In this document: positions 3,599 through 60,000 of the stretch, piece after piece
Layout: each line of letters starts with the position of its first letter
Numbering within the stretch: the first letter of the stretch is position 1
Made by a program: the position numbers and the translations under genes
The notes under the pieces: model-generated
Databases searched by the model: none
Seen by the model: the letters and a program-made list of their open reading frames with translations, nothing else
Told to the model about the DNA's origin: nothing
Source: Patescibacteria group bacterium
GTDB taxonomy: Bacteria; Patescibacteriota; Patescibacteriia; PEXW01
DNA length: 64,000 nucleotides
NCBI GenBank assembly: GCA_041665345.1
Contig: JBAYJA010000001.1
Coordinates: 73,206-137,205, forward strand
Reading direction: 5' to 3'

Positions 3599-4831
3599 AT
3601 GCACACTGGAGATTGGATTGCCTGTTTTGGCCGCGAACCCTCACTTTCGGCCTGGGAACTGTACCGCGTTACCGGGCAGGATTTTGGCACATTGCACAAG
3701 GAAGTGGCTGTCCTGCCGCCTATGCCTGGACATAGCTTGGTGCAGCTCCAGCAGCGCTGTGGGGGGCTGGTGAAGGTTGGGGAGGTCTTGGGCATAGCGC
3801 CTGACTTGGTGAGTCTCCACGCCACCCTGGTGCAGGCATGGCCGCAGTTGGTCCCGGCTGGGAGTACGGCCCGGGTCCACTTTGGGGTGAGTGTGTACGG
3901 TGCTGGCGGCGCGACGTTGCCACAGGTTCGAAAAGAAGCGAAGAACCTGGCGCAGGGTTTGAAGCGAGAGCTGGTGGAACGGGGTCGGTCTGCGCGGTTG
4001 GTCATTGCCAAAGAACCAGTCTTGCCAGCAGCAGCACTGATCCAGGGAAAAATCTTGGAACGGGGATTTGAAATTCTCATCCTCACCACCCCAGATGGTT
4101 TGGTCTGGGGGAAGACCGTGGCCGTGCAAGATATTAGCGGGTATGGCAACCGAGACGTGGGCCGGCCGCGGCGGGATGCAACGTCCGGCATGCTGCCGCC
4201 CAAGCTGGCGCAGATTATGGTGAACCTCACTGCGCCCCGGCCACAGGCAACGTTGCTGGATCCGTTTTGCGGTTCTGGCACGATTCTGCAAGAAGCTGCA
4301 CTCTTGGGGGTGGAGCACATCGTTGGTTCGGACATGAGTGACAAAGCTGTGCAAGATTCCACGGTGAACATTGCCTGGTTGCAAGAGCACAGCCAGGTCA
4401 CGAAAGACATCCGCGTCTTCCGGGCTGATGCTGCAGAAATTGCCAAGCATGTGAAACCAAACTCCATTGAGACCATTGCAACTGAGCCGTACTTGGGTCC
4501 ACCCCAACGAGGTGTGCCGCGCGGCAGAGTTCTCCTGCCACTCATCTCCGCACTCAGCCGGCAGTACGAGCAGTGGCTGCAGGCCATGGCCGACGTATTA
4601 CAACCGGGTGGTCGTTTAGCCATGGTCTGGCCTTTCTTTCAGGTGGAAAAGCAGGGGTACTTTTTGCAAGTGCAAGACGCAGCAAAGAACGCTGGTTTCC
4701 AGGTCATACAGCCGCCAACCTGGATGCTGGAGCAACCCTGGTTCCGCTCCACGCCGCGCGGCACTGTGCTGTACTCTCGACCTGACCAAGTAGTGGGCCG
4801 GGAAATTGCCTTACTGGAAAAACATGCGTAG
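3599..4831 (+). CDS. THUMP-domain class I SAM-dependent RNA methyltransferase (RlmL/Trm14-like).
   Basis: SAM-binding motif LLDPFCGSGTILQEAALLG, catalytic-region motif TEPYLGPP, and an N-terminal THUMP-like region. The start codon is uncertain. Confidence 0.6.
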   Translation: MHTGDWIACFGREPSLSAWELYRVTGQDFGTLHKEVAVLPPMPGHSLVQLQQRCGGLVKVGEVLGIAPDLVSLHATLVQAWPQLVPAGSTARVHFGVSVYGAGGATLPQVRKEAKNLAQGLKRELVERGRSARLVIAKEPVLPAAALIQGKILERGFEILILTTPDGLVWGKTVAVQDISGYGNRDVGRPRRDATSGMLPPKLAQIMVNLTAPRPQATLLDPFCGSGTILQEAALLGVEHIVGSDMSDKAVQDSTVNIAWLQEHSQVTKDIRVFRADAAEIAKHVKPNSIETIATEPYLGPPQRGVPRGRVLLPLISALSRQYEQWLQAMADVLQPGGRLAMVWPFFQVEKQGYFLQVQDAAKNAGFQVIQPPTWMLEQPWFRSTPRGTVLYSRPDQVVGREIALLEKHA

Positions 4832-9300: not shown

Positions 9301-10124
9301 TTCTCAGCTAGTCGCAGAGTTCGCTCCAGCAGCATCGCCACGGTCACGGGCCCAACGCCGCCAGGTACGGGTGTTAGCCAGCCGGGCTGATTTGCCATAC
9401 TCGCTGCGTCCACATCGCCCACCACTTTCCCGTCTACACGGTTAAACCCCACGTCAACAATAATGACGTCTGGTTTGGTATGTTCAGCTTTGAGGAAACC
9501 AGCTTTGCCAAGGGCAATGACAATGAGGTCGGCGTCTTTTGTTGCTTGGGCAAAGTCACGGAAGGGGGGGTAGAGCAAGGTCACGTCCAAACCTGCACGG
9601 GTGAGCAGCATGGCCATGGGTTCGGCGAAGATGGGGCCATTTGCCAGCACCACCGCTTTTTTTCCGTCTAGAGGTACGCCGGGAACTTGTGCCAAAGCCA
9701 AGACACCTTCGCACAAGCCAGGAGCCAGTGCACCCGGCACATTCTGCTTGTAGCGTTCCAGGTTGGTTTTGTGAAAGCCGTCTGCGTCTTTTGCGGGATC
9801 AATGGCGGAAACCACCGTGTCAGCATTCAGCTGGTTTGGCAGCGGGAGCTGGACAATCATGCCACTGATAGCTGCGTTGGCATTGAGTGCTTGGATTTTT
9901 TGCACCACCGTTGCTTCATCCACTGTTGCGGGAAAGCGGTGTACTTCGGCATGGATGCCAACCTGTGCAGCAGCTTCTTCTTTGAGGCGAACGTAGGTGA
10001 CGGAAGCTGGGTCGTCACCAACCAAAACAATTGCTAAGCCAGGTCGGGTGCTGCTTGCGGCGCAGTGTGTCTTCACACTGCTGAGTATGCTATTAGCTAA
10101 TGCACGACCGTCAATCTTCTGCAT
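9297..10124 (-). CDS. folD: Bifunctional methylenetetrahydrofolate dehydrogenase/cyclohydrolase.
   Basis: 275 aa with GRALA and YVRLK motifs and a Rossmann-type GxG region. Confidence 0.9.
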   Translation of the reverse strand: MQKIDGRALANSILSSVKTHCAASSTRPGLAIVLVGDDPASVTYVRLKEEAAAQVGIHAEVHRFPATVDEATVVQKIQALNANAAISGMIVQLPLPNQLNADTVVSAIDPAKDADGFHKTNLERYKQNVPGALAPGLCEGVLALAQVPGVPLDGKKAVVLANGPIFAEPMAMLLTRAGLDVTLLYPPFRDFAQATKDADLIVIALGKAGFLKAEHTKPDVIIVDVGFNRVDGKVVGDVDAASMANQPGWLTPVPGGVGPVTVAMLLERTLRLAEN

Positions 10125-10126
10125 GA

Positions 10127-10169
10127 GTTACGAATTACGAATAGATACTACGAAAATACGAATTACGAA
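10127..10169 (-). repeat. Tandem heptamer array (W)TACGAA ending 2 nt before the folD start codon.
   Basis: Plus strand reads GTTACGAATTACGAATAGATACTACGAAAATACGAATTACGAA. In folD sense it reads ...TTCGTAATTCGTAACTC-ATG. Confidence 0.6.
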
Positions 10170-17889: not shown

Positions 17890-18552
17890 ATGTCAGATAA
17901 CATGCCCCCATCCACAGATACACCGATAACTAGCGAACAGATTGACCGGCTCTATGAACGGTTTGTCGCCGGTCTGAAGAGTGGGATCGCGAAGTACGTC
18001 CATGAGAGCGAAGGTACTGCGTTGGTTGACGAGTTCGTTGCTCTAGTGGGCCGACGTGTCGAAGCGCGTATGCACGTCGCGAATATGCGTATTGAACTAG
18101 ATGTGCTTAGTCGCCGACCCTTTGACCCCGTACAGTTCCTCGGGAATAACTGGCGTATCGTCGACCGGATCGGAAAGCGTGGCGGTGACAGTTTGCGTGC
18201 TAGCGACATTGTCAGTAAGGTCTATTTACACGAAGGCGAGACCAGTATCAATGGAGGAGAGCTCCCCAATCGTATCAAGGCTAACCCTGATGATGTACAG
18301 CTTGATGCCGAAGACTTTCTTGCCCTCTGGCAGGAAAACGGTCATAAGATGCTGAATACGCTCTATGAGACAAAGGGTATAACCTGGTTGTCATTCTGGG
18401 GAACCATTCTGAAGTCTATGGGCAGACGTTACGTTCTCTATCTGGGTCGGCACGACTACGGTTCCTGGTTTTGGAGCTTTGCTTTCATTGACGCCGACGA
18501 CTGGGATGCCGATCATCCCGCGGGTGTGTACAAAAGAAGTTCTTTGGGCTGA
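17890..18552 (+). CDS. Hypothetical protein, 220 aa, paralog of 542..1204.
   Basis: RBS AAGGAGGA. Shared blocks with the first copy: FDPVQFLGNNWRIVDRIGKRG, DDVQLDAEDFLALWQE, YETKGITWLSFWG, YVLYLGRHDYGSWFW, IDADDW. Confidence 0.6.
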   Translation: MSDNMPPSTDTPITSEQIDRLYERFVAGLKSGIAKYVHESEGTALVDEFVALVGRRVEARMHVANMRIELDVLSRRPFDPVQFLGNNWRIVDRIGKRGGDSLRASDIVSKVYLHEGETSINGGELPNRIKANPDDVQLDAEDFLALWQENGHKMLNTLYETKGITWLSFWGTILKSMGRRYVLYLGRHDYGSWFWSFAFIDADDWDADHPAGVYKRSSLG

Positions 18553-24949: not shown

Positions 24950-25006
24950 GGGGTCCCCACAGACGTGGCGCGCAACCATGTCTTCATGGTGAGCACGCGT
25001 CTGTGG
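24950..25006. repeat. Hairpin repeat element X, copy A: an 11-bp outer stem with a variable apical hairpin.
   Basis: GGGGTCCCCACAGACGTGGCGCGCA-[ACCATGTCTTCATGGT]-GAGCACGCGTCTGTGG. Copies B and C lie at 55466 and 59108. Confidence 0.5.
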
Positions 25007-25050
25007 ACCGGTGTGCCAGTCTTTTGTCCCACAAAGTTGTGAATTCAGAT

Positions 25051-25149
25051 GGCTCGCCAGCCGTAGCCCGAGAACAAACGTCGTGTCCTCCTACGCTCGG
25101 AAGCTTCGGAGGACAGCCTTCGCCCTCGTCAAAGCCCGAGGGCGAAGGC
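25051..25149 (-). repeat. Conserved module immediately 3' of tRNA-Leu, copy A: two strong hairpins plus GGCTNGCCAGCCGTAGC.
   Basis: Minus strand after the tRNA CCA end: hairpin AGCCTTCGCCCTCG...CGAGGGCGAAGGCT, then GTCCTCC...GGAGGAC, then GCTACGGCTGGCGAGCC. A near-identical module follows tRNA-Ser at 55656..55754. Confidence 0.5.
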
Positions 25150-25236
25150 TGGTGCCGGAGAGAGGACTTGAACCTCCATGGGATTGCTCCCACACGGCTC
25201 TGAACCGTGCGTGTATACCAATTTCACCACTCCGGC
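25150..25236 (-). tRNA. tRNA-Leu(CAG).
   Basis: Minus strand reads GCCGGAGTGGTGAAATTGGTATACACGCACGGTTCAGAGCCGTGTGGGAGCAATCCCATGGAGGTTCAAGTCCTCTCTCCGGCACCA. 7-bp acceptor stem, long variable arm, anticodon loop TTCAGAG, TTCAAGT T-loop, encoded CCA. Confidence 0.85.
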
Positions 25237-25539
25237 GTATGGTTCGCCATTTCTTATAAACGGCGGCTAACGAATGACGTGCCCCGCAGAACGCAGGGGA
25301 AAGCACTGATACTACCAGGGAAAAGGTACTTTGTCAAGCCTTCATGCTGGTATTGTACCGTGAGGCTGGGGACTTACCTAGTAGCAAGTATTTGCTACAC
25401 GATAGAAGGTTTCGTTTTCGGTAGCGGTATTGATGGAGGGGCGAGGCATGCTCGAAGACGTGCATTGCTTCCTATCATATTGCTCACAACTTCTATCAAT
25501 ACCTCCATCCCAACCAATACCTTCAATCCAAAACCCCTG

Positions 25540-32047: not shown

Positions 32048-32192
32048 GAGGGGAGTATAGCAAGCTGCGAAAAGGGTTTGGGTGGTGGTGTGGCGGCGAG
32101 TATGGGTATGGTATAAGGTTGGAGGTTTTCCAAATCGCTCCACCCTTTAACCCCACTCGCTGCCACACCTAAACCCCCACCGCTCCATAGCC

Positions 32193-35545: not shown

Positions 35546-35608
35546 GTTACGAAATACGAATATGGTTACGAATTACGAAATAAAGATACGAAACTACGAA
35601 TGTACGAA
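35546..35608. repeat. Tandem heptamer array (W)TACGAA, about eight units.
   Basis: TTACGAAATACGAATATGGTTACGAATTACGAAATAAAGATACGAAACTACGAATGTACGAAT, then GGGGAGGGAATGGG. A 28-nt block is identical to part of the 2038..2080 array. Confidence 0.6.
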
Positions 35609-35828
35609 TGGGGAGGGAATGGGAATACGGTGTGCAAGATTGTGCAACGTTTCCCTCGCCCTTTGAGGGAGAGGGAACAAGGGAGAGGGGGAGGCGGTTT
35701 GGGTGTGGCGGCGAGTGGGGTTATAGGGTATAGGCGTAGGTTGGTCCAAAGACCATTTTCCAAACCATCTACCCTAACGAGCCTCCATACCCTTCACCCC
35801 TGCCCCTGCTTCAAGGTAGGATACCAGC

Positions 35829-38813: not shown

Positions 38814-38936
38814 GTTACGAAATACGAAATTTCGTACGAAAATACGAATTACGAACCCATTTACCAGCTAGTTGCAAGAGTAGTTGAAACCGTTCGTATT
38901 TCGTACTTTCGTAGCATTTCATTCGTAATTCGTAAT
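38814..38936 (+). repeat. Two inverted arrays of the (W)TACGAA heptamer, five TACGAA units then five TTCGTA units, flanking a 35-nt core; the array ends 5 nt before the groES ATG.
   Basis: GTTACGAAATACGAAATTTCGTACGAAAATACGAATTACGAAC ... GTTCGTATTTCGTACTTTCGTAGCATTTCATTCGTAATTCGTAAT, then TACTT-ATG. Confidence 0.6.
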
Positions 38937-53552: not shown

Positions 53553-55367
53553 TTACTGTCCCGCTTCCAACTGGATAAAGAGTCTGGCCAGGCGGAGCTC
53601 TTCGTAGGTAAAATGTTCGCCCAAGATTTCCCGAACCGGGGAGAGTAACCAGCTCTTGGATTTTTTGAATGCTTGGGCAATTTCCTGGAGATCATTGGCA
53701 TGTGGCCGGAGGTACTCCACGTCGATATTTTTTCGAGTTTGAAGTAACTTCTCAATATGACCCACAATCGTGGTCGGGGACATACCCCGTCGACGAGCGA
53801 TTTCCGTAAGCGGTAATTTTTGGCGAAGCAATTCTTGCGTCGCGGTATAGGTTGTACCAAGCAGCGCAACCTTTGGTGTTCGAGCCAGAGCTGGTTCACT
53901 CCTGGCTTTTTCCGTTATATGCTTTTGCTTGGCGTATGCCTGAATGGCACGCACGAACGTCTCACCCAATTCTTGTAGCTTCCGCTGACCCACGCCGTAC
54001 ACGCGGGCAAAGCTCCCTAGACTTTGGGGGAAGTACGTCGCCATATCTTGGAGACTCTTGTCCCCAAAAATCACAAATGGTGGAACGCCATGTACATCGG
54101 CTAAACGTTTGCGCAGCGCCCGCAGTTCCTCGAAGAGTTCAGCATCATAGGCAGCTGGCGCATCAGCAACACCCTGGGTTTGTAGCGCAGGGACACATAG
54201 GTCGCAAGCGCCACAATTTTTGGTTGGCCAGCTTTCCCCAAAGTACTCCAGCAGGTATTTTCGGCGGCAGGTGTGCCCGTCGCAGTAGGCAACAACTTGT
54301 TGCAGTTTGTGCTCCACTTGTTGGCGTTCGGCAGGATCCGCAATTTGCTGGCTGAAGAAGCGGTGCTTCCGTGTGTCCCCGTAGGAGTAGTAGAGAATGC
54401 ACTGGCTGGGTAAACCGTCCCGCCCGGCGCGGCCAGTTTCCTGGTAGTACCCTTCAATGGACTTCGGCAGGTCGTAGTGGACAATCAACCGGACATCCGG
54501 TTTATCAATACCCATGCCAAAGGCAATGGTGGCAACGATGATCCGGACTTCATCGCGGATAAATTGTTCTTGGGTAGCCTGGCGAAGTGTCGGCTCTAAC
54601 CCAGCGTGGTAGGGCAAAGCCGAAAAACCCTGCTCGCGCAGATTCGCCGCCAGATTTTCGGTGTCCTTGCGGGAGAAGCAGTAAATAATCGCGCTGCCTG
54701 TGCTGTGGTGCAGCACGTCCACCAGTGCAGCAAAGGTTTGGTGCTTGGGGCGCACTAGGTAGGTGAGGTTGGGTCGGTTGAAGCTGGAGACAAAAAATTT
54801 TGGCGACCGCAGCGCCAGCTGTTTGATAATATCCTCGCGCACTCGTTCCGTGGCAGTAGCGGTTAAGGCAATGACGGGAACGTCTGGAAAATCTTGGCGC
54901 AGTTGGACTAAGTTTCGATAGTCAGGCCGGAAGTCATGCCCCCATTCAGAAATGCAGTGTGCTTCGTCCACAGCTATGTACGAAACAGCAACATCCTGTA
55001 ACCATTCCCGGAAGTAGGGGAGCGCCAGACGTTCGGGTGCCAGGTACAGAATTTTTAACCCCCCGGTCTCCACCTGGGTTTGCACCTGCCGAATCGTTTC
55101 AGCATCCAAAGTACTGTTAATAAACGCGGCGGCAATCCCATTCGCGCGCAGGGCGTCCACCTGGTCTTTCATCAACGAGATGAGCGGGGAAATAACCACA
55201 GTTACCCCATCCACCATGAGCGCGGGTAGCTGAAAACACAGCGACTTACCGCCACCAGTGGGCATGAGTACCAACGTATCCTGCTTTTGCAAAACCTGGG
55301 TGATGATTTCCTCCTGCAAGGGTCGGAACGCCTGGAACCCAAAATGTTTTTTCAATAATGCGTGCAT
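53553..55367 (-). CDS. recQ: ATP-dependent DNA helicase RecQ.
   Basis: N-terminus [33 protein letters not shown] box ([15 protein letters not shown]), a Zn-binding Cys cluster, and RQC and HRDC-like C-terminal domains. Confidence 0.9.
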
Positions 55368-55465
55368 AGTACAGACTTATGAATGAATCGCGAAATGAGT
55401 GTCTACTCGGTACAGAGAAGGGTAACGGATGGGTGGAAAGTTGGCAAGGCAGACGATTTTTCTTC

Positions 55466-55535
55466 GGGGCCCCCACAGATGTGGCGCGCAGTCCCGCTGC
55501 GGGACGAGCACGCGTCTGTGGGGTCAAGCGAGGCT
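55466..55535. repeat. Hairpin repeat element X, copy B.
   Basis: GGGGCCCCCACAGATGTGGCGCGCA-[GTCCCGCTGCGGGAC]-GAGCACGCGTCTGTGGGG-TCAAGCGAGGC. Confidence 0.5.
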
Positions 55536-55655
55536 TCGTGGGAACGGTGGAGCGGGATGCGCAAAAAGCGCGTCACGCGGAACTGTGACCACGAAACGAG
55601 CTGCCCTGAACCACTCCTCGCCCGACTCATCGGTTGCAGGGCATGAACCAGGACT

Positions 55656-55754
55656 GGCTTGCCAGCCGTAGCTCTTCCAACATACTCTATGTCCTCCTTC
55701 GCTAGGAGCTTCGGAGGACAGCCTTCGTCCTCAACAAAGCTTGAGAGCGAAGGC
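55656..55754 (-). repeat. Conserved module immediately 3' of tRNA-Ser, copy B.
   Basis: GGCTTGCCAGCCGTAGC, then hairpins GTCCTCC...GGAGGAC and AGCCTTCG...CGAAGGCT, in the same order and position as after tRNA-Leu. Confidence 0.5.
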
Positions 55755-55842
55755 TGGCGGAAGGGGCGAGATTCGAACTCGCGATACCTTTCGGTATACT
55801 CGCTTTCCAAGCGAGCGCACTCGGCCACTATGCGACCCTTCC
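55755..55842 (-). tRNA. tRNA-Ser(GGA).
   Basis: Minus strand reads GGAAGGGTCGCATAGTGGCCGAGTGCGCTCGCTTGGAAAGCGAGTATACCGAAAGGTATCGCGAGTTCGAATCTCGCCCCTTCCGCCA. Long variable arm, anticodon loop TTGGAAA, TTCGAAT T-loop, encoded CCA. Confidence 0.85.
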
Positions 55843-55903
55843 ACGAAATGCGAATGTAGCATACCTGGCGATTTGAGCAAGGGCAACTGCTATACTTTGG
55901 GCA

Positions 55904-55938
55904 TGCCACAATGCACCTGGCTAGGCGAAGATTCGCCT
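55904..55938 (+). pseudogene. Duplicated remnant of the tag 5' end (MPQCTWLGEDS vs MTNCTWPGEDS).
   Basis: ATGCCACAATGCACCTGGCTAGGCGAAGATTCGCC versus the tag start ATGACCAACTGCACCTGGCCAGGCGAAGATTCAC at 56574; about 30/35 identical. Confidence 0.4.
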
Positions 55939-55960
55939 TAACTCATGGTTAAAGGAGGTT

Positions 55961-55989
55961 TTGACGCCTGGGCATTCATATGATAAGGT
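55961..55989 (+). promoter_or_regulatory. Candidate promoter TTGACG-N17-TAAGGT for 56029..56517.
   Basis: Hexamers at 55961-55966 and 55984-55989. Confidence 0.35.
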
Positions 55990-56028
55990 GTCGAGCATTA
56001 ATAAGAAACCCGAATAGTAGGAGAAAAT

Positions 56029-56517
56029 ATGAAACCAACAATCGATGAAGTAAAAAAATTTTTCTTTGAAGCAAAGCTCCACGGTTGGGCAGCGGATGTT
56101 CCGTCGAGTTCTGTTCCGGGAAAGCCTGGGTACAAGCGAATAACATTCAAACGGGGCAGGTTCCTGTTGGTGGACGAGTGGTGTACGACTGGCCACAGCA
56201 GGATGAGCGCAGGAACGTCAACAATTTTCTGCGATAAGGAACCTGTATGGTTCATGTCGTATACCGGCTTCTACGAAAAAGTCGCCATACCCTTCCTCAA
56301 GCTCGCCCTCCTGCGGTCGTATCAGGCCAGAGAATTCAACGGAGGTCGTGGACCCAACGACTTCGAACAAAAGGGCATGGTCTATAGCAACGAGGTAGAT
56401 CTGGATGATTTCGAAAACTTCCAAGGTTGCGAGTCAGTCACCCGAAAAGGCCGCGGCCAAAAATTGCTAGGAGAGCATCATTACTACGGGGTAAGTTTAC
56501 TCCGTGAATCTGATTAA
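56029..56517 (+). CDS. Hypothetical protein, 162 aa, in a low-GC insert.
   Basis: RBS TAGGAGAAAATATG. Bounded by the tag-start duplication. Confidence 0.5.
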   Translation: MKPTIDEVKKFFFEAKLHGWAADVPSSSVPGKPGYKRITFKRGRFLLVDEWCTTGHSRMSAGTSTIFCDKEPVWFMSYTGFYEKVAIPFLKLALLRSYQAREFNGGRGPNDFEQKGMVYSNEVDLDDFENFQGCESVTRKGRGQKLLGEHHYYGVSLLRESD

Positions 56518-56528
56518 GAGTTTCCTAT

Positions 56529-56558
56529 AGCTGCCGGATAACCTGGCAGCTATTTTTT
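56529..56558 (+). terminator. Rho-independent terminator.
   Basis: AGCTGCC-GGATAACCT-GGCAGCT followed by ATTTTTTCG. Confidence 0.6.
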
Positions 56559-56573
56559 CGCTATACTTGATGT

Positions 56574-57140
56574 ATGACCAACTGCACCTGGCCAGGCGAA
56601 GATTCACTGATGATTGCGTACCACAACAAAGAGTGGGGTGTGCCGTTGTGGAATGAGCGGAAGCTGTTTGAGTTCATGGTATTGGATGCCTTCCAGGCTG
56701 GTTTGAGTTGGCGGACCGTGCTGCACAAACGGAAGAACTTTGCACGGGCTTTTGATAACTTTGATCCAAAGAAAATCGCGAAGTACGCCCCGGCGAAAAT
56801 CAACAAGCTCTTGAAAGACGTGGGGATTATCCGGAATCGTGCAAAGGTCAACGGTACAGTAAAAAACGCAAAGGCATTTCTGGCACTGGAAAGAGCGCAG
56901 GGGAGTGTGGCGGAGTATTTATGGCAATTTACCGGCGGAAAACCGAAAGTGAATCATTGGAAAACCACCAAACAAATTCCAGCTCGGAGTAAAGAGTCTG
57001 ATGCAATGAGCGAAGCTTTGAAGAAGGCGGGTTTCACTTTTGTTGGTTCAACTATTTGCTACGCGTTCATGCAGGCTGCCGGGATGGTGAATGATCACCT
57101 GGTGGAGTGTCCACGGTGGAGGGAAGTAAAAAAATTGTGA
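56574..57140 (+). CDS. tag: DNA-3-methyladenine glycosylase I.
   Basis: CTWPGEDSLMIAYHNKEWGVP and FEFMVLDAFQAGLSWRTVLHKR; HhH-GPD superfamily with zinc-site Cys/His residues. Confidence 0.85.
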   Translation: MTNCTWPGEDSLMIAYHNKEWGVPLWNERKLFEFMVLDAFQAGLSWRTVLHKRKNFARAFDNFDPKKIAKYAPAKINKLLKDVGIIRNRAKVNGTVKNAKAFLALERAQGSVAEYLWQFTGGKPKVNHWKTTKQIPARSKESDAMSEALKKAGFTFVGSTICYAFMQAAGMVNDHLVECPRWREVKKL

Positions 57141-57208
57141 TCTTCGCATCTGTCTTGTGCCAATAAGATTGGCCTGCTAAGGTGGTGAAAACGTAGGAGA
57201 AAAAATGT

Positions 57209-57730
57209 ATGTCTGAAAAAATATTATTGAAAGCCACGCTGGTGTTCCCTGTTCGAGACGACCAAGTTTTACTGGCGAAAAAGGTACGGAAAATTGGTGC
57301 CGGCTGCTTGAACGGTTATGGTGGCGGGGTGGAACCGGGTGACGCAACGCTCATTGATGCGGCTTTGCGGGAATTTACTCAAGAAACAGGCGGGCTTATG
57401 GCCAAGGCTGCGGATCTAGTCAAAGTAGCTGTGGTCGATTTTCACAATCGAACCGTTGAGGGAATTCGTTTCACGTGTCGTGTTCACGTCTATCTCCTCT
57501 ACGGCTTGCAAGGTCAGGCAAAGACTACTGAGGAAATGGCTGACCCAGCCTGGTTTTCTAAAAATGCCTTGCCGTTAGGTAAGCTTATGCCCGCCGATCC
57601 TTACTGGTTGCCCCGAATACTAGCCGGGGAATTCCTCTACGTAAAGGCTTGGTATGGGCCGGCGCAAAAGACTTTGGAAAAAGCAGTACAAGTCACTCCC
57701 GTGACGCCCAACGAACTTGACCGTCTGTAG
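57209..57730 (+). CDS. NUDIX hydrolase, MutT-like.
   Basis: Nudix box GGGVEPGDATLIDAALREFTQETGG (REUxEExG). Confidence 0.75.
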   Translation: MSEKILLKATLVFPVRDDQVLLAKKVRKIGAGCLNGYGGGVEPGDATLIDAALREFTQETGGLMAKAADLVKVAVVDFHNRTVEGIRFTCRVHVYLLYGLQGQAKTTEEMADPAWFSKNALPLGKLMPADPYWLPRILAGEFLYVKAWYGPAQKTLEKAVQVTPVTPNELDRL

Positions 57731-57831
57731 GCTTCCAAGCTTGCCGACGGTTTTTATCAACCCGACTTTTTACAAACCACGGGCAGGGAGAGTAATCTGC
57801 CGTAGAATGTTTAGGTGAGGGAAAGTACAGA

Positions 57832-57855
57832 AAAAAACGACCCGTGGGGGTCGTT
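57832..57855 (-). terminator. Rho-independent terminator for 57863..58099.
   Basis: Minus strand reads ACGACCCCCACGGGTCGT followed by TTTTTTTCTG. Confidence 0.55.
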
Positions 57856-57862
57856 ATCATCT

Positions 57863-58099
57863 TCAGTCAAGTACAAGTTGCTGACTCCCATCGATGGCTC
57901 CTTCTGTCTCCGAGAGTTTTTTGATCTTCACCTGAGCGCGCATGCGAGCTTCGGCTTCGCTCACCGCATTCTCTATGGTGAAGGTAAAGAGTGGCCCCAT
58001 GACCTGCTTGCGGTAGGAGAATGTGTAATCTCCAATCCGTGTGGTATGTACGTTGGGGCGGGGCGTCATTGCTGCGAAAAGAATTTTCAAAATGTTCAT
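57863..58099 (-). CDS. Hypothetical protein, 78 aa.
   Basis: ORF followed by a terminator. Confidence 0.35.
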   Translation of the reverse strand: MNILKILFAAMTPRPNVHTTRIGDYTFSYRKQVMGPLFTFTIENAVSEAEARMRAQVKIKKLSETEGAIDGSQQLVLD

Positions 58100-58204
58100 C
58101 TTGTCTCCTCTATTTTTTTCTATTTTGATTCAACACTATAGCGTACGGTAGTCCATTTGTCAATAGTTGGTAAGGTGGATACTTGATCATGGTACACTCT
58201 ACGC

Positions 58205-58465
58205 ATGCAGCGTGTATGGTTCAAAGCGAAGGAGTACGGCTACGGTTGGTACCCGGCGACCTGGCAAGGGTGGCTCATTTTACTCAGCTACCTGGCTGTC
58301 GTTCTTGGTGTGACCTTCCTCATTTTCGATTTTCGGTCAGACCAAGCAACCCTTGGTCAGATTCTGTGGTTCGTTGGCATTACTTTTGTGGCGACAATTT
58401 TGCTGATTGTGATTTGTTGGAAGACGGGGGAGAAGGCCGGGTGGAGATGGGGGAAGAAGAGATAG
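58205..58465 (+). CDS. Small membrane protein, 86 aa.
   Basis: Two TM helices and a basic C-terminus. Confidence 0.35.
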   Translation: MQRVWFKAKEYGYGWYPATWQGWLILLSYLAVVLGVTFLIFDFRSDQATLGQILWFVGITFVATILLIVICWKTGEKAGWRWGKKR

Positions 58466-58642
58466 AAGTTTTCGTTGTTGGTAAAGGTATGGGTTGAGGG
58501 AATAGATAAAAGACTCTTTCTGTCCTCTACCTCTAACTGCTCACCATACCTCCATCAAAACCCAAACCTTCTATCGCAGTTTTGCATCTTCCCCTAGAAC
58601 AGTAGTAGAATAGAAACATCTTTCCCTTAACCCCGTGCGCCT

Positions 58643-59050
58643 ATGCCAGACGTCACTATCAACTACGTCGCCGTGCTCGTGTCCGGTCTCATTGCCATGG
58701 TTTTGGGCGGTTTGTGGTACTCACCTGTGCTGTTTGGAAAAGTCTGGGCGCGCATTGCAAATATTGATGAAGCCGCGGCCAAGAAAGAGGCGCCCCTGGC
58801 CTACGTGAAAATGTTCATCTTGGCACTCATTTCCGCTTGGGTGCTGGCGCACTTCGTGGACTACACGCAGTCTACCACCTTCATGAATGGTGCCCTCACG
58901 GGTTTCTGGGTGTGGTTGGGCTTTGTGGCTACCGTCACCATGTCCGGGGTTATTTTTGAAAAGCGACCCTCCAAACTGTGGTTTTTGAACAACGGTTACC
59001 AGCTCATCCTCCTGGTCATTACAGGCGGGGTGTTGGCCATTTGGTCCTAA
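58643..59050 (+). CDS. DUF1761-like membrane protein, 135 aa.
   Basis: Four hydrophobic helices with a WYSP motif near the N-terminus. Confidence 0.5.
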   Translation: MPDVTINYVAVLVSGLIAMVLGGLWYSPVLFGKVWARIANIDEAAAKKEAPLAYVKMFILALISAWVLAHFVDYTQSTTFMNGALTGFWVWLGFVATVTMSGVIFEKRPSKLWFLNNGYQLILLVITGGVLAIWS

Positions 59051-59107
59051 GTTTTCATAGGTAAGGAAAAAGCGGCGTCTTCGGACGTCGTTTTTTTGCT
59101 CTTCCCC

Positions 59108-59210
59108 GGGGTCCCCATGAATGTGGCGCGGACCCTGAGTGAGCCCCGCAATCCTGCGGGATAAACTCCACGAATCGAAGGGGAGCACGCGTTCATGGGG
59201 TCAAGCGAGC
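59108..59210. repeat. Hairpin repeat element X, copy C; the outer stem carries three compensatory base-pair changes.
   Basis: GGGGTCCCCATGAATGTGGCGCGG-[long variable insert]-GAGCACGCGTTCATGGGG-TCAAGCGAGCC. ACAGA/TCTGT in copies A and B becomes ATGAA/TTCAT here. Confidence 0.5.
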
Positions 59211-59361
59211 CTGCCCCGTACCGGACCCCGAGCGGAGTCGAGGGGGACTGGTGCGGGGGCTTCGAACGGCCTCCGGCCCGGAGGGAACCCGTAGTGGAGC
59301 CGCGAATGCGGGTACACGGAGGGTGGAGTTCGAAATGAGCGTCTGCTACACTAACCAAGCT

Positions 59362-60000
59362 ATGGGAATCACCGATGCTATTGTCCATCTTGCGACCGAC
59401 ATTATCCAGCGCGCAGGCTATGCCGGTATTGGTTTTCTGATGGCCTTGGAGAGCATGATTTTTCCCGTGCCCAGCGAGGCGGTTATGCCCTTTGCGGGTT
59501 TTGCCTGGGCAGATGGTACCTTGCGCTGGTTTGGGATTTTTCTGGCCAGTACTATTGGTAGCTTGGTTGGTTCCTGGATTTCCTACGCCATTGGTCGGTA
59601 CGGTGGCCGGCCGTTCATTCGGAAGTTCGGGAAGTACTTTTTGCTCAACGAGCAACACCTGGACCAGACCGAAGCTTTTTTCCAACGCTGGGGCGAAAAG
59701 GCAATTTTCGTTTGCCGGTTCATTCCAGTGGTGCGGCACTTCATTTCCATCCCGGCGGGTGCGGGCAAAATGCACTTGGGGAAGTTTACCCTGTACACGC
59801 TCTTTGGCGCAGCAATCTGGAACATGTTCCTCACCTACCTGGGCTTCCGGTTGGGGAGTGACTGGGAGAAGATTCAGAAGTACAGCCACGTCCTTGATAT
59901 TGTGGTGATCGCGGTGATCATTTTGGGGATTGTGTACTTGGTGTACCGGAAAATGCGGAAAGGACGGAATGTCACTTCTCTCACGAAGAGCGATGGCTAA
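59362..60000 (+). CDS. DedA-family membrane protein.
   Basis: GYAGIGFLMALESMIFPVPSE and FIPVVRHFISIPAG motifs. Start chosen at MGITDAIV. Confidence 0.75.
   Translation: MGITDAIVHLATDIIQRAGYAGIGFLMALESMIFPVPSEAVMPFAGFAWADGTLRWFGIFLASTIGSLVGSWISYAIGRYGGRPFIRKFGKYFLLNEQHLDQTEAFFQRWGEKAIFVCRFIPVVRHFISIPAGAGKMHLGKFTLYTLFGAAIWNMFLTYLGFRLGSDWEKIQKYSHVLDIVVIAVIILGIVYLVYRKMRKGRNVTSLTKSDG

Follow-up and report, generated by a model that had tools for sequence, protein, structure and literature searches.

What is the nature of a hairpin that occurs three times, with compensating changes in its stem, in 64,000 nucleotides (nt) of a Patescibacteria group bacterium (contig JBAYJA010000001.1; the whole of this stretch is called the window below, and positions refer to it)? 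A first-pass annotation of the window had taken the hairpin for a structured RNA or DNA family, and had named a small non-coding RNA, or a DNA hairpin recognised by a recombinase as in REP/BIME elements or IS200/IS605 ends, as candidates. It is well supported by the present analysis that the hairpin family is the 5' domain of a larger structured family, R1, which is absent from Rfam. R1 is a two-domain nucleic-acid structure of about 135 nt, selected in a strand-specific manner and anchored in antisense to the 3' ends of transfer RNA (tRNA) genes, and its history includes insertion or duplication, as seen from nested arrays, target repeats, remnants and recombinant combinations of its first domain (P1) with its second (domain 2).

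Architecture, covariation and strand of R1

The three copies, all on the + strand, begin where they had been placed, at 24950 (copy A), 55466 (copy B) and 59108 (copy C). Their 25-nt 5' arm constitutes a repeat family with three members in the window (repeat D11), and the motif TGGCGCG-N-GAGCACGCG matches copies A and B at a chance expectation of 0.00. A covariance model, trained on copies from other genomes plus copy B only, recovered copy B with E = 2e-33, copy C with 6e-12 and copy A with 3e-9, and nothing further in the window. The compensated stem changes are as first described: CAG/CUG in copies A and B is replaced by UGA/UCA in copy C, so that three adjacent transitions are matched on the opposite arm, and the apical region is indeed variable. 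The motif ascribed to all copies is shared by them, with three and not five variable positions per arm (GAGCACGCG-T-NNN-TGGGG). The outer stem, which had been given 11 base pairs (bp), has 13, formed by CCCCANNNAYGUG with CGCGUNNNUGGGG and including a conserved U.G pair and a Y-G pair. From the 11 pairs claimed for copy A just 9 form, while 11 form in the full 13-pair register (24957-24967 with 24996-25006).

The hairpin had, furthermore, been described as a self-contained element. Instead, it is the 5' domain of a unit with two domains: conservation extends about 80 nt past the hairpin in copy B (to 55603) and to 59342 in copy C, and homologues share these additional nucleotides with copy B in the form ...GGGGUMAAGCGAGGCUUCG...CGAAACGAGCUGG. 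The consensus consists of P1, a 3-nt linker and domain 2. P1 carries a variable tip above an almost invariant internal loop (GUG-GC-GC-GNA / GA-GC-A-CGC), and domain 2 is composed of P2 (AGC/GCU), a GA/GA loop, one G-C pair, P2b (UUCGNNN/NNNCGAA), P3 and a P4 tip. Copy B follows this plan from its 5' GGGGC through P1, the linker UCA and domain 2 to the end ...CGAAACGAGCUG. The internal loop of its P1 is conserved as GUG-GC-GC-GCA / GA-GC-A-CGC under a variable 6-bp tip, and its domain 2 has the P2 AGC/GCU, the GA/GA loop and the single G-C, followed by P2b UUCGUGG/CCACGAA, P3 ACGGU/ACUGU and the P4 tip. The minimum free energy of copy B is -81.3 kcal/mol (z -6.0) on the + strand versus -70.7 on the - strand. 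Copy C is matched by the model in two pieces (59108-59235 at 56.5 bits and 59258-59338 at 13.4 bits), and copy A ends with GGAC in place of GGGG, without TCAAGCGAG and all of domain 2.

In the first scan for homologues, with one genome per species, only the inner motif and the 3' arm were constrained, and the 5' arm was left free. At about 21 loci the free arm proved to be complementary, and these loci belong to Patescibacteria-group, Kerfeldbacteria or unclassified metagenome-assembled genomes (MAGs); the other matches, about 65, are chance matches in GC-rich genomes. When 13 sequences were aligned with MAFFT, compensatory changes were found at 13 of 32 pairs. In 49 copies gathered from metagenomes by a domain 2 pattern, standard pairs fill 96.2% of the pair cells, a figure that partly reflects the collection of copies by intact motifs, compared with 75.4% in a shuffled control and 24-54% when the partners are slid by 1-3 columns. 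In the same copies both-sided changes occur at 30 of the 32 pairs, and the observed values were reached by none of 500 shuffles. Covariation is seen at every pair of the P1 outer stem except an invariant G-C, and domain 2 has double changes at all 15 counted pairs, with helices 4 and 5 paired to 98-99%. Selection on secondary structure, first proposed from three copies, thus extends well past them. Intact copies within one genome are about 35% diverged and still completely paired, and copies in the same genome differ by compensated changes, as do copies B and C, or copies 1 and 2 of locus L103 (L-numbers denote homologous R1 loci outside the window).

It is hardly credible, then, that the copies arose by chance, are plain decaying repeats or are ordinary terminator hairpins. 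Copy A is degenerate, and a P1-only copy in L037 is followed by a T-tract, both of which such an explanation would accommodate, but it is contradicted by the chance expectation of 0.00, by the covariation statistics, by the spread of R1 across many lineages of the candidate phyla radiation (CPR, or Patescibacteria) and metagenomes, and, as far as terminators are concerned, by the lack of a U-tract after P1 in copies A, B and C. A terminator scan flagged no R1 hairpin, and P1 is followed by GGGGUCAAGCGAG in copies B and C.

The alignment also tells the two strands apart. The + strand is rich in G.U and U.G pairs (U.G 33 times at one pair, G.U 28 times and U.G 9 times at another, and G.U 12 times at a third), while the mirror-image A.C cells are rare, which means that G.U pairs are almost confined to the + strand. 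Among 43 copies of at least 110 nt, the + strand folds better than its complement in all 43, on average by 11.9 kcal/mol under RNA parameters and by 5.6 kcal/mol under DNA parameters. From the G.U bias and this folding preference it follows that + is the structured strand.

No known family accounts for the element. At the gathering threshold, Rfam 15 finds two tRNAs only in the whole window; permissive scans around copies C and B gave matches at chance level, with E>2 over the element, and twelve related loci gave tRNA and ribosomal RNA (rRNA) only. The Rfam search that had been suggested as a check therefore returned no family match to the element. Pattern scans of IMG/VR and blastn against phages and plasmids gave no R1 match, and literature searches gave no described CPR tRNA-linked RNA or repeat of this kind. 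Readings by eye as a K-turn, a hammerhead (CUGUGA...GAAAC) or an SRP-like AGCA loop, and a tRNA-like reading of the copy C region, were rejected, as the consensus does not fit them and neither Rfam nor ARAGORN supports them.

Anchoring to tRNA genes and nested insertions

A link between the hairpin and the 3' flanks of tRNA genes had been noted in the window. The link exists and was understated, since elsewhere the unit ends exactly at the complement of a tRNA CCA. A census of 70 R1 copies, from both scans and the window, bears out the association with tRNA genes for which a check had been suggested. The element ends exactly at a convergent tRNA gene in 39 copies, such that its terminal CUGG overlaps the complement of CCA, and in a further 15 a convergent tRNA lies at most 400 nt away; none has a co-directional tRNA, 13 have no tRNA that could be found and 3 lie at a contig end. 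The orientation is accordingly convergent in each of the 54 copies that have a tRNA at this distance or closer. The junction, at which GAGC passes into UGG, is identical across the 39 abutting copies, and the tRNA species involved number more than 15. The gene upstream of R1 is divergent in 25 and co-directional in 20 of 45 classifiable cases, and from this mixed orientation it follows that the position of R1 is set by the tRNA and not by its other neighbour.

The displaced copies retain the same register. In most of the 15, GAGC is directly followed by 9-22 nt of tRNA complement (21 nt in four loci), and this tail, which spans CCA to T-loop, is followed by other small inserts and then by the intact tRNA gene. 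In L103 the insert between tail and tRNA is a second R1. Exceptions without a retained tail are L040, L093 and copy B, which run straight into another module; other small inserts (55604-55754), modules to which the first-pass annotation had given a separate entry, have moved copy B to a distance of 151 nt from tRNA-Ser. A terminator sub-variant (L008, L157, L166) has a different P2 sequence, no tRNA, and its own hairpin and U-tract on the + strand, and free-standing variants upstream of lipoprotein genes occur in three loci, where they may reflect shared synteny. The presence of an encoded CCA was also considered as a sign of RNA-level origin, but 26 of 26 tRNA genes encode CCA with or without R1, so that this does not discriminate.

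An element in this position might be a cis-acting boundary of tRNA units, which stops or processes antisense transcripts or aids the 3' processing of pre-tRNA. R1 sits at the 3' ends of tRNA units, often just past the terminator of the convergent gene, and also behind 5S rRNA; RNase Z-type trimming is not the expected route for CCA-encoding pre-tRNAs, and all 26 tRNA genes examined are of that kind. A boundary function is nevertheless improbable, because neither hairpin of the tRNA-type copies has a U-tract after it on any strand, because the strand in the sense of the tRNA is less structured than its complement in 43 of 43 copies, and because the 25 divergent upstream neighbours send no + strand transcription toward the element. 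A nucleotide-exact register would, moreover, be superfluous for an insulator.

The surroundings of the tRNA genes bear the traces of repeated insertion. Nested arrays are laid out as direct repeat, spacer, R1 and direct repeat. Direct repeats of tRNA 3' ends, 12-22 nt long, flank inserts in L099, L103, L113 and L036, and repeats of 20-22 nt with breakpoints in the T-loop occur at 6 loci; an upstream target repeat is present in just 4 of 38 tRNA-abutting copies. R1-like or P1-only copies also lie co-directionally just behind 5S rRNA (L040, 635-960; L037, 2300-2520), where direct repeats of the 5S 3' end plus T-tract, about 33 nt long in L040 and 13 nt in L037, enclose them, and one 5S-linked copy precedes a second 5S-type T-tract. 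Tandem or partial copies are found in L039, L046 and L070 and include copy A, the tandems being head-to-tail, and in L078 identical P1 domains are joined to different domain 2 sequences. In a syntenic Ile-Val-Phe-Pro tRNA cluster, the presence of R1 differs between L020 and L028.

R1 shares these sites with other small sequences. In the window, 25102-25152 and 55707-55757 are 88% identical (repeat D8). They belong to further conserved modules stacked between R1 and the CCA ends of the tRNAs, and several unrelated small elements thus occupy the CCA-abutting position. The modules include GGCTYGCCAGCCGTAGC and two strong hairpins, the last of which ends ...GAAGGCUGG on the complement of CCA. In L040 and L070 R1 is succeeded by a related CCCTGAACCA...CAGGGCATGAACCA module, and in L031 by GCCAGCCGTAGC. 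A conserved insert of about 40 nt (CCCC-nnn-GGGG CCGG CTTGC-TCCCGATGGGT-CGCAAG) is found in the T-loop of tRNA 3' fragments in L151 (1116-1240), L137, L092, L155, L158 and L110, and upstream of R1 in L057, L123 and L099; in displaced copies it is followed by an inverted T-loop/T-stem copy, which varies by tRNA species. A palindromic insertion of about 35 nt (CCTGCCCGCCG...loop...GGCAGGCGGG) occurs inside an R1 copy, a tRNA fragment and a tRNA-Thr pseudogene (L047 at 4770-4810, L137, L106), and the 49-nt hairpin of copy C opens with a similar CCTGCCCCG. In L078 (4980-5100) the last 9 nt of a tRNA-Ala (GGTCCACCA) recur 37 nt after the gene and are followed by R1, and the same tRNA-Ala-like tail occurs in L150 with no tRNA nearby.

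R1 could from all this be a purely selfish, non-autonomous element, similar to short interspersed nuclear elements (SINEs) or miniature inverted-repeat transposable elements (MITEs), with a structure that serves for mobility only and a tail that is a by-product. It would pass through a strand-specific RNA or single-stranded DNA intermediate, be handled by an enzyme encoded elsewhere and be inserted at the 3' ends of stable-RNA genes, either by target-primed or tRNA-CCA-primed reverse transcription or by att-type recombination from T-loop to CCA. Such an origin, the main rival to the reading preferred below, is possible, if on the unlikely side. It would account for many dispersed copies with varying occupancy of the same tRNA cluster, for truncated and tandem partial copies, for target direct repeats at tRNA 3' ends (12-22 nt) and 5S 3' ends (13 and about 33 nt), for a nucleotide-exact junction in more than 15 tRNA species, for the exchanged domains in L078 and for the other tiny hairpin insertions that riddle the same loci. 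It is difficult to reconcile with the upstream target repeat being seen in only 4 of 38 tRNA-abutting copies, with the lack of a mobility enzyme among the 25 most frequent neighbour Pfam families and in the window, and with the lack of R1 matches in the viral, phage and plasmid collections. A divergence of about 35% with full pairing would, in addition, demand several long-lived master lineages or selection in place, and the co-directional orientation of the 5S-linked copies, unlike that of the tRNA cases, argues against simple priming from a stable-RNA 3' hydroxyl.

Table 1. Positions of the R1 copies, their parts and the adjoining features in the window
Feature	Position	Strand	Basis or remark
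R1 copy A, P1-only remnant	24950-25008	+	model positions 1-60 alone align
Stretch between copy A and tRNA-Leu, equivalent to that after copy B	25009-25149	.	repeat D8
tRNA-Leu(CAG)	25150-25236	-	convergent with copy A
sigma-70-like promoter of tRNA-Leu(CAG) region	25337-25309	-	promoter scan
R1 copy B, complete, two domains	55466-55603	+	model 146.6 bits, E = 2e-33, model positions 1-137
P1 hairpin of copy B (hairpin of the first-pass annotation)	55471-55523	+	outer stem 55471-55483 with 55511-55523
Domain 2 of copy B, long irregular hairpin	55527-55602	+	covariation and fold
Small structured modules between copy B and tRNA-Ser CCA end	55604-55754	.	repeat D8
tRNA-Ser(GGA)	55755-55842	-	convergent with copy B, 151 nt from its 3' end
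Hairpin and T-tract before copy C	59070-59097	+	by-eye candidate intrinsic terminator of DUF1761 gene, 10 nt upstream
R1 copy C, complete architecture, enlarged P1 tip, two insertions	59108-59342	+	model and fold
P1 hairpin of copy C	59113-59200	+	outer stem CCCCAUGAAUGUG/CGCGUUCAUGGGG; tip about 60 nt
49-nt hairpin insert in copy C, between GCGAG and GCUUCG	59210-59258	+	family consensus and fold
Second insert in copy C, 15-nt hairpin	59270-59284	+	family consensus and fold

Transcription, partners and a possible role of R1

What could a strand-selected structure with a fixed register to tRNA be for? In genomes as tiny as those of the CPR, about 135 nt that are kept beside many tRNA genes are not idle DNA. 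According to the reading preferred here, which is tentative and for which we would claim somewhat less than an even chance, the + strand acts as an RNA scaffold that binds a protein encoded elsewhere and carries a tail complementary to tRNA. The + strand would be transcribed into RNA, the protein-binding scaffold would consist of P1 and domain 2, the internal loops of which hardly vary, and the transcript would run on into a tail complementary to the tRNA 3' end, i.e., UGG, the discriminator and the 3' strand of the acceptor, as far as the T-loop. The fixed register to the tRNA points to such a tail, and the terminator sub-variant together with the co-directional 5S copy points to transcription of the + strand. 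Scaffold plus tail would then act on the neighbouring tRNA or its gene, in the manner of a guide RNA or a primer-binding site. Insertion or duplication at the 3' ends of genes for stable RNAs would spread and reshuffle the family, and would leave behind nested arrays, tRNA 3' fragments and truncated remnants like copy A.

The genes around R1 were surveyed for a partner. Among 148 open reading frames (ORFs) within 3.5 kb of 51 copies, 165 Pfam families are represented, each with at most 4 occurrences, and the 25 most frequent families include no reverse transcriptase, integrase or transposase. The ORFs of the window are of a housekeeping kind (RNase J, RecQ, DnaG, UvrA/C, GroEL, SHMT and others), with no transposase, TnpB, reverse transcriptase or integrase among them, in agreement with the earlier statement that no transposase is nearby; RAYT (Y1 transposase) is absent from the window ORFs and not enriched among the 148 neighbours. 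The lack of a linked protein family is consistent with a partner that acts in trans.

Several observations weigh against an RNA scaffold with a tRNA-complementary tail. The neighbourhood census names no partner protein. No sigma-70-like promoter was found upstream of copies A, B and C on the + strand, in a scan which is weak, as it gave 3 sites where 2.8 were expected, over at least 8 genes. When 68 upstream regions were aligned, only a T-rich, G-poor stretch of about 12 nt appeared, and this is often the terminator U-tract of the neighbour; some copies begin as close as 17-70 nt from the start codon of a divergent gene. In tRNA arrays (L078) the - strand, though less structured, is certainly transcribed, since the complement of R1 serves there as a spacer within the operon. 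A tRNA tail is lacking in copy C and in the variants of the terminator type, and from copy A and other P1-only copies it is seen that not every copy is maintained. The lack of a recognisable + strand promoter and the presence of remnants speak for a selfish element, with the reservation that the promoter scan found only a chance number of sites. Finally, the collection patterns demanded intact conserved words, which means that decayed copies are under-sampled and that the pairing percentage loses part of its weight.

A more specific form of the scaffold reading is unlikely, and it would be the most novel. Here R1 RNAs would be natural scaffold-plus-tail molecules, the 3' tail of which pairs with the CCA end or acceptor strand of the tRNA or its gene. 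In one version, as doubtful as the whole of which it is a part, they would belong to an RNA-guided CPR system in which a further protein acts on tRNAs or tRNA genes. In the other, equally doubtful, R1 would be a SINE-like retroelement copied from the 3' hydroxyl of the tRNA CCA or from a nick there, and the arrangement tRNA-CCA-complement(R1) would be its fixed 'strong-stop' product. Either version, if true, would be without precedent in bacteria.

The unusual trait of R1 is its antisense anchoring to the CCA end of tRNA with single-nucleotide precision, in organisms that make up a large and little-understood share of bacterial diversity. If an RNA carries the tail, R1 could disclose a new way to act on tRNAs, in quality control, regulation or priming. 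If R1 is mobile, it would represent a new class of small tRNA-targeted elements and a tool for studying the genome dynamics of uncultured bacteria.

Some observations concern individual loci. Copy C has no adjoining tRNA and lies directly upstream of, or overlaps, the start of a VTT/DedA gene. Within 59331-59365 it has CGAAAUGAGC in place of the conserved CGAAACGAGC, and this makes an ATG at 59335; one gene call starts VTT/DedA at this ATG, with GGAG seven nt upstream, and another starts it at 59362. Copy C may overlap the translation start of the gene. No strain polymorphism was seen at copy C, the locus being identical in two other samples. The hairpin upstream of copy C (59070-59097) also aligns to terminator-like stems of unrelated Rfam models, and a scan of 55200-59500 for consensus terminators does not list it. 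The MAGs richest in R1 (L008, L026, L031, L039, L046, L047 and L078 from CAZBMC01; L011 and L037 from CAZAMC01) are recorded as 'uncultured Gammaproteobacteria'; R1 and the tRNA contexts are Patescibacteria-like, and the label may be wrong.

Other repeats were seen in the window. AT-rich repeats of TACGAA(T/A)TACGAA units lie at 2033-2080, 10122-10169, 35560-35607 and 38835-38855 (D1, D15). Intergenic repeats of the form GGTGTGGCGGCGAGT(A/G)(T/G)GGG(T)TAT... lie at 32087-32127 and 35702-35742 (D18, D2), with reverse-complement-like copies at 2160-2200, 25488-25528 and 58535-58575. Two paralogous ORFs of 220 amino acids without Pfam match (542-1204 and 17890-18552; D6, D7, D10) have about 75% DNA identity and are 17,360 nt apart, and a 46-nt direct repeat with 80% identity (D14) is found upstream of tRNA-Ser (55889-55934) and upstream of a methyladenine glycosylase gene (56560-56605).

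Comparison with known systems

Two familiar regulatory structures were considered and rejected as identities of R1. A T-box leader would have a stem I with a specifier and an antiterminator with UGGN, and would be followed by an aminoacyl-tRNA synthetase or amino-acid gene, whereas an antisense tRNA is found downstream of R1, and there is no Rfam T-box match. For an intrinsic terminator the U-tract is lacking after the R1 hairpins, and only the sub-variant carries an extra terminator after the element.

REP/BIME, ERIC, BOX, Correia/NEMIS and RUP elements resemble R1 in being multi-copy, intergenic, imperfect palindromes that are often placed at the 3' ends of genes, and further in their structure at the RNA level, their modular composition and their mobilisation in trans. 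One alternative, along the lines of the first-pass annotation, is that the hairpin acts as DNA, of the REP/BIME or IS200/IS605-end type, and is recognised in single-stranded form by a Y1 (HUH) transposase. The strand specificity of R1 and its intergenic location would agree with this, as G.T pairs are tolerated in DNA and the + strand is favoured in 43 of 43 copies with DNA parameters too. A DNA hairpin of this kind is all the same very improbable. R1 is a fixed unit of about 135 nt, where a REP palindrome has about 20-40 nt, made up of two unlike, irregular hairpins with near-invariant loops and no terminal inverted repeats, its foot is GGGGYCCCC(A/G) and not GTAG, and it is anchored to the tRNA CCA to the single nucleotide. 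BIMEs have both orientations clustered together, whereas R1 keeps one orientation to tRNAs (54 of 54 convergent) and has head-to-tail tandems, and no RAYT or other transposase was found in the window or enriched among the neighbours. The target sites of IS200/IS605 elements lie 5' of the left end; in R1 it is the 3' side of the structured strand that bears the conserved flank (UGG plus the tRNA complement), and the 5' flank is T-rich and G-poor without a fixed word. TnpA and TnpB are absent from the window ORFs and not enriched among the neighbours of the 51 copies.

Integrase islands at tRNA genes, in which att identity extends from the T-loop to CCA, are similar in that direct repeats of the last 20-22 nt of the tRNA border the nested inserts, the breakpoints of which fall in the T-loop. 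The R1 inserts are by contrast just 85-200 nt long and non-coding, they abut more than 15 tRNA species, and no integrase is among the 25 most frequent neighbour families. The repetitive hairpin-forming elements (RHE) of mitochondrial genomes, for example in sponges, are likewise mobile, small and rich in GC, and they invade intergenic regions as well as genes for structured RNAs in compact genomes (PMC2800124). They belong to other organisms, have no sequence similarity to R1, and are simple hairpins without the two-domain layout or the anchoring to CCA.

In guide RNAs, such as the omega RNA or reRNA of TnpB, the CRISPR RNA (crRNA) of Cas12 and the short tRNA-homing crRNA of type V-K systems, a scaffold is followed by a target-complementary part, as the R1 scaffold is followed by about 10-22 nt complementary to its putative target. 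Type V-K CRISPR-associated transposons also home to tRNA genes. The likeness is one of layout alone, with a fixed junction encountered in 39 abutting copies. R1 differs in that no effector gene or repeat-spacer array overlaps it or lies near it in the window or the neighbour census, in that Rfam gives no match to omega-RNA or HEARO families, and in that its 'guide' is the neighbouring functional tRNA gene in antisense, in dozens of copies per genome.

The remaining comparison is with the primer-binding site and U5 region of retroviruses and long terminal repeat (LTR) retrotransposons, and with tRNA-primed or tRNA-targeted retroelements (Mauriceville retroplasmid, Dictyostelium TRE and Ty3). 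R1 contains no reverse transcriptase, LTR or coding parts, it has a whole functional tRNA gene on the other strand and not a primer-binding site alone, its tail stops at tRNA position 56/55 and not at the 1-methyladenosine m1A58, and its 5S-linked copies are oppositely oriented. What R1 shares with these retroelements is the order of the parts on the tRNA-sense strand, in which a tRNA ending in CCA is followed by the complement of a structured RNA, as in a tRNA-primed strong-stop cDNA, and a tail that starts with UGG and runs for 9-22 nt to the T-loop, like a primer-binding site.

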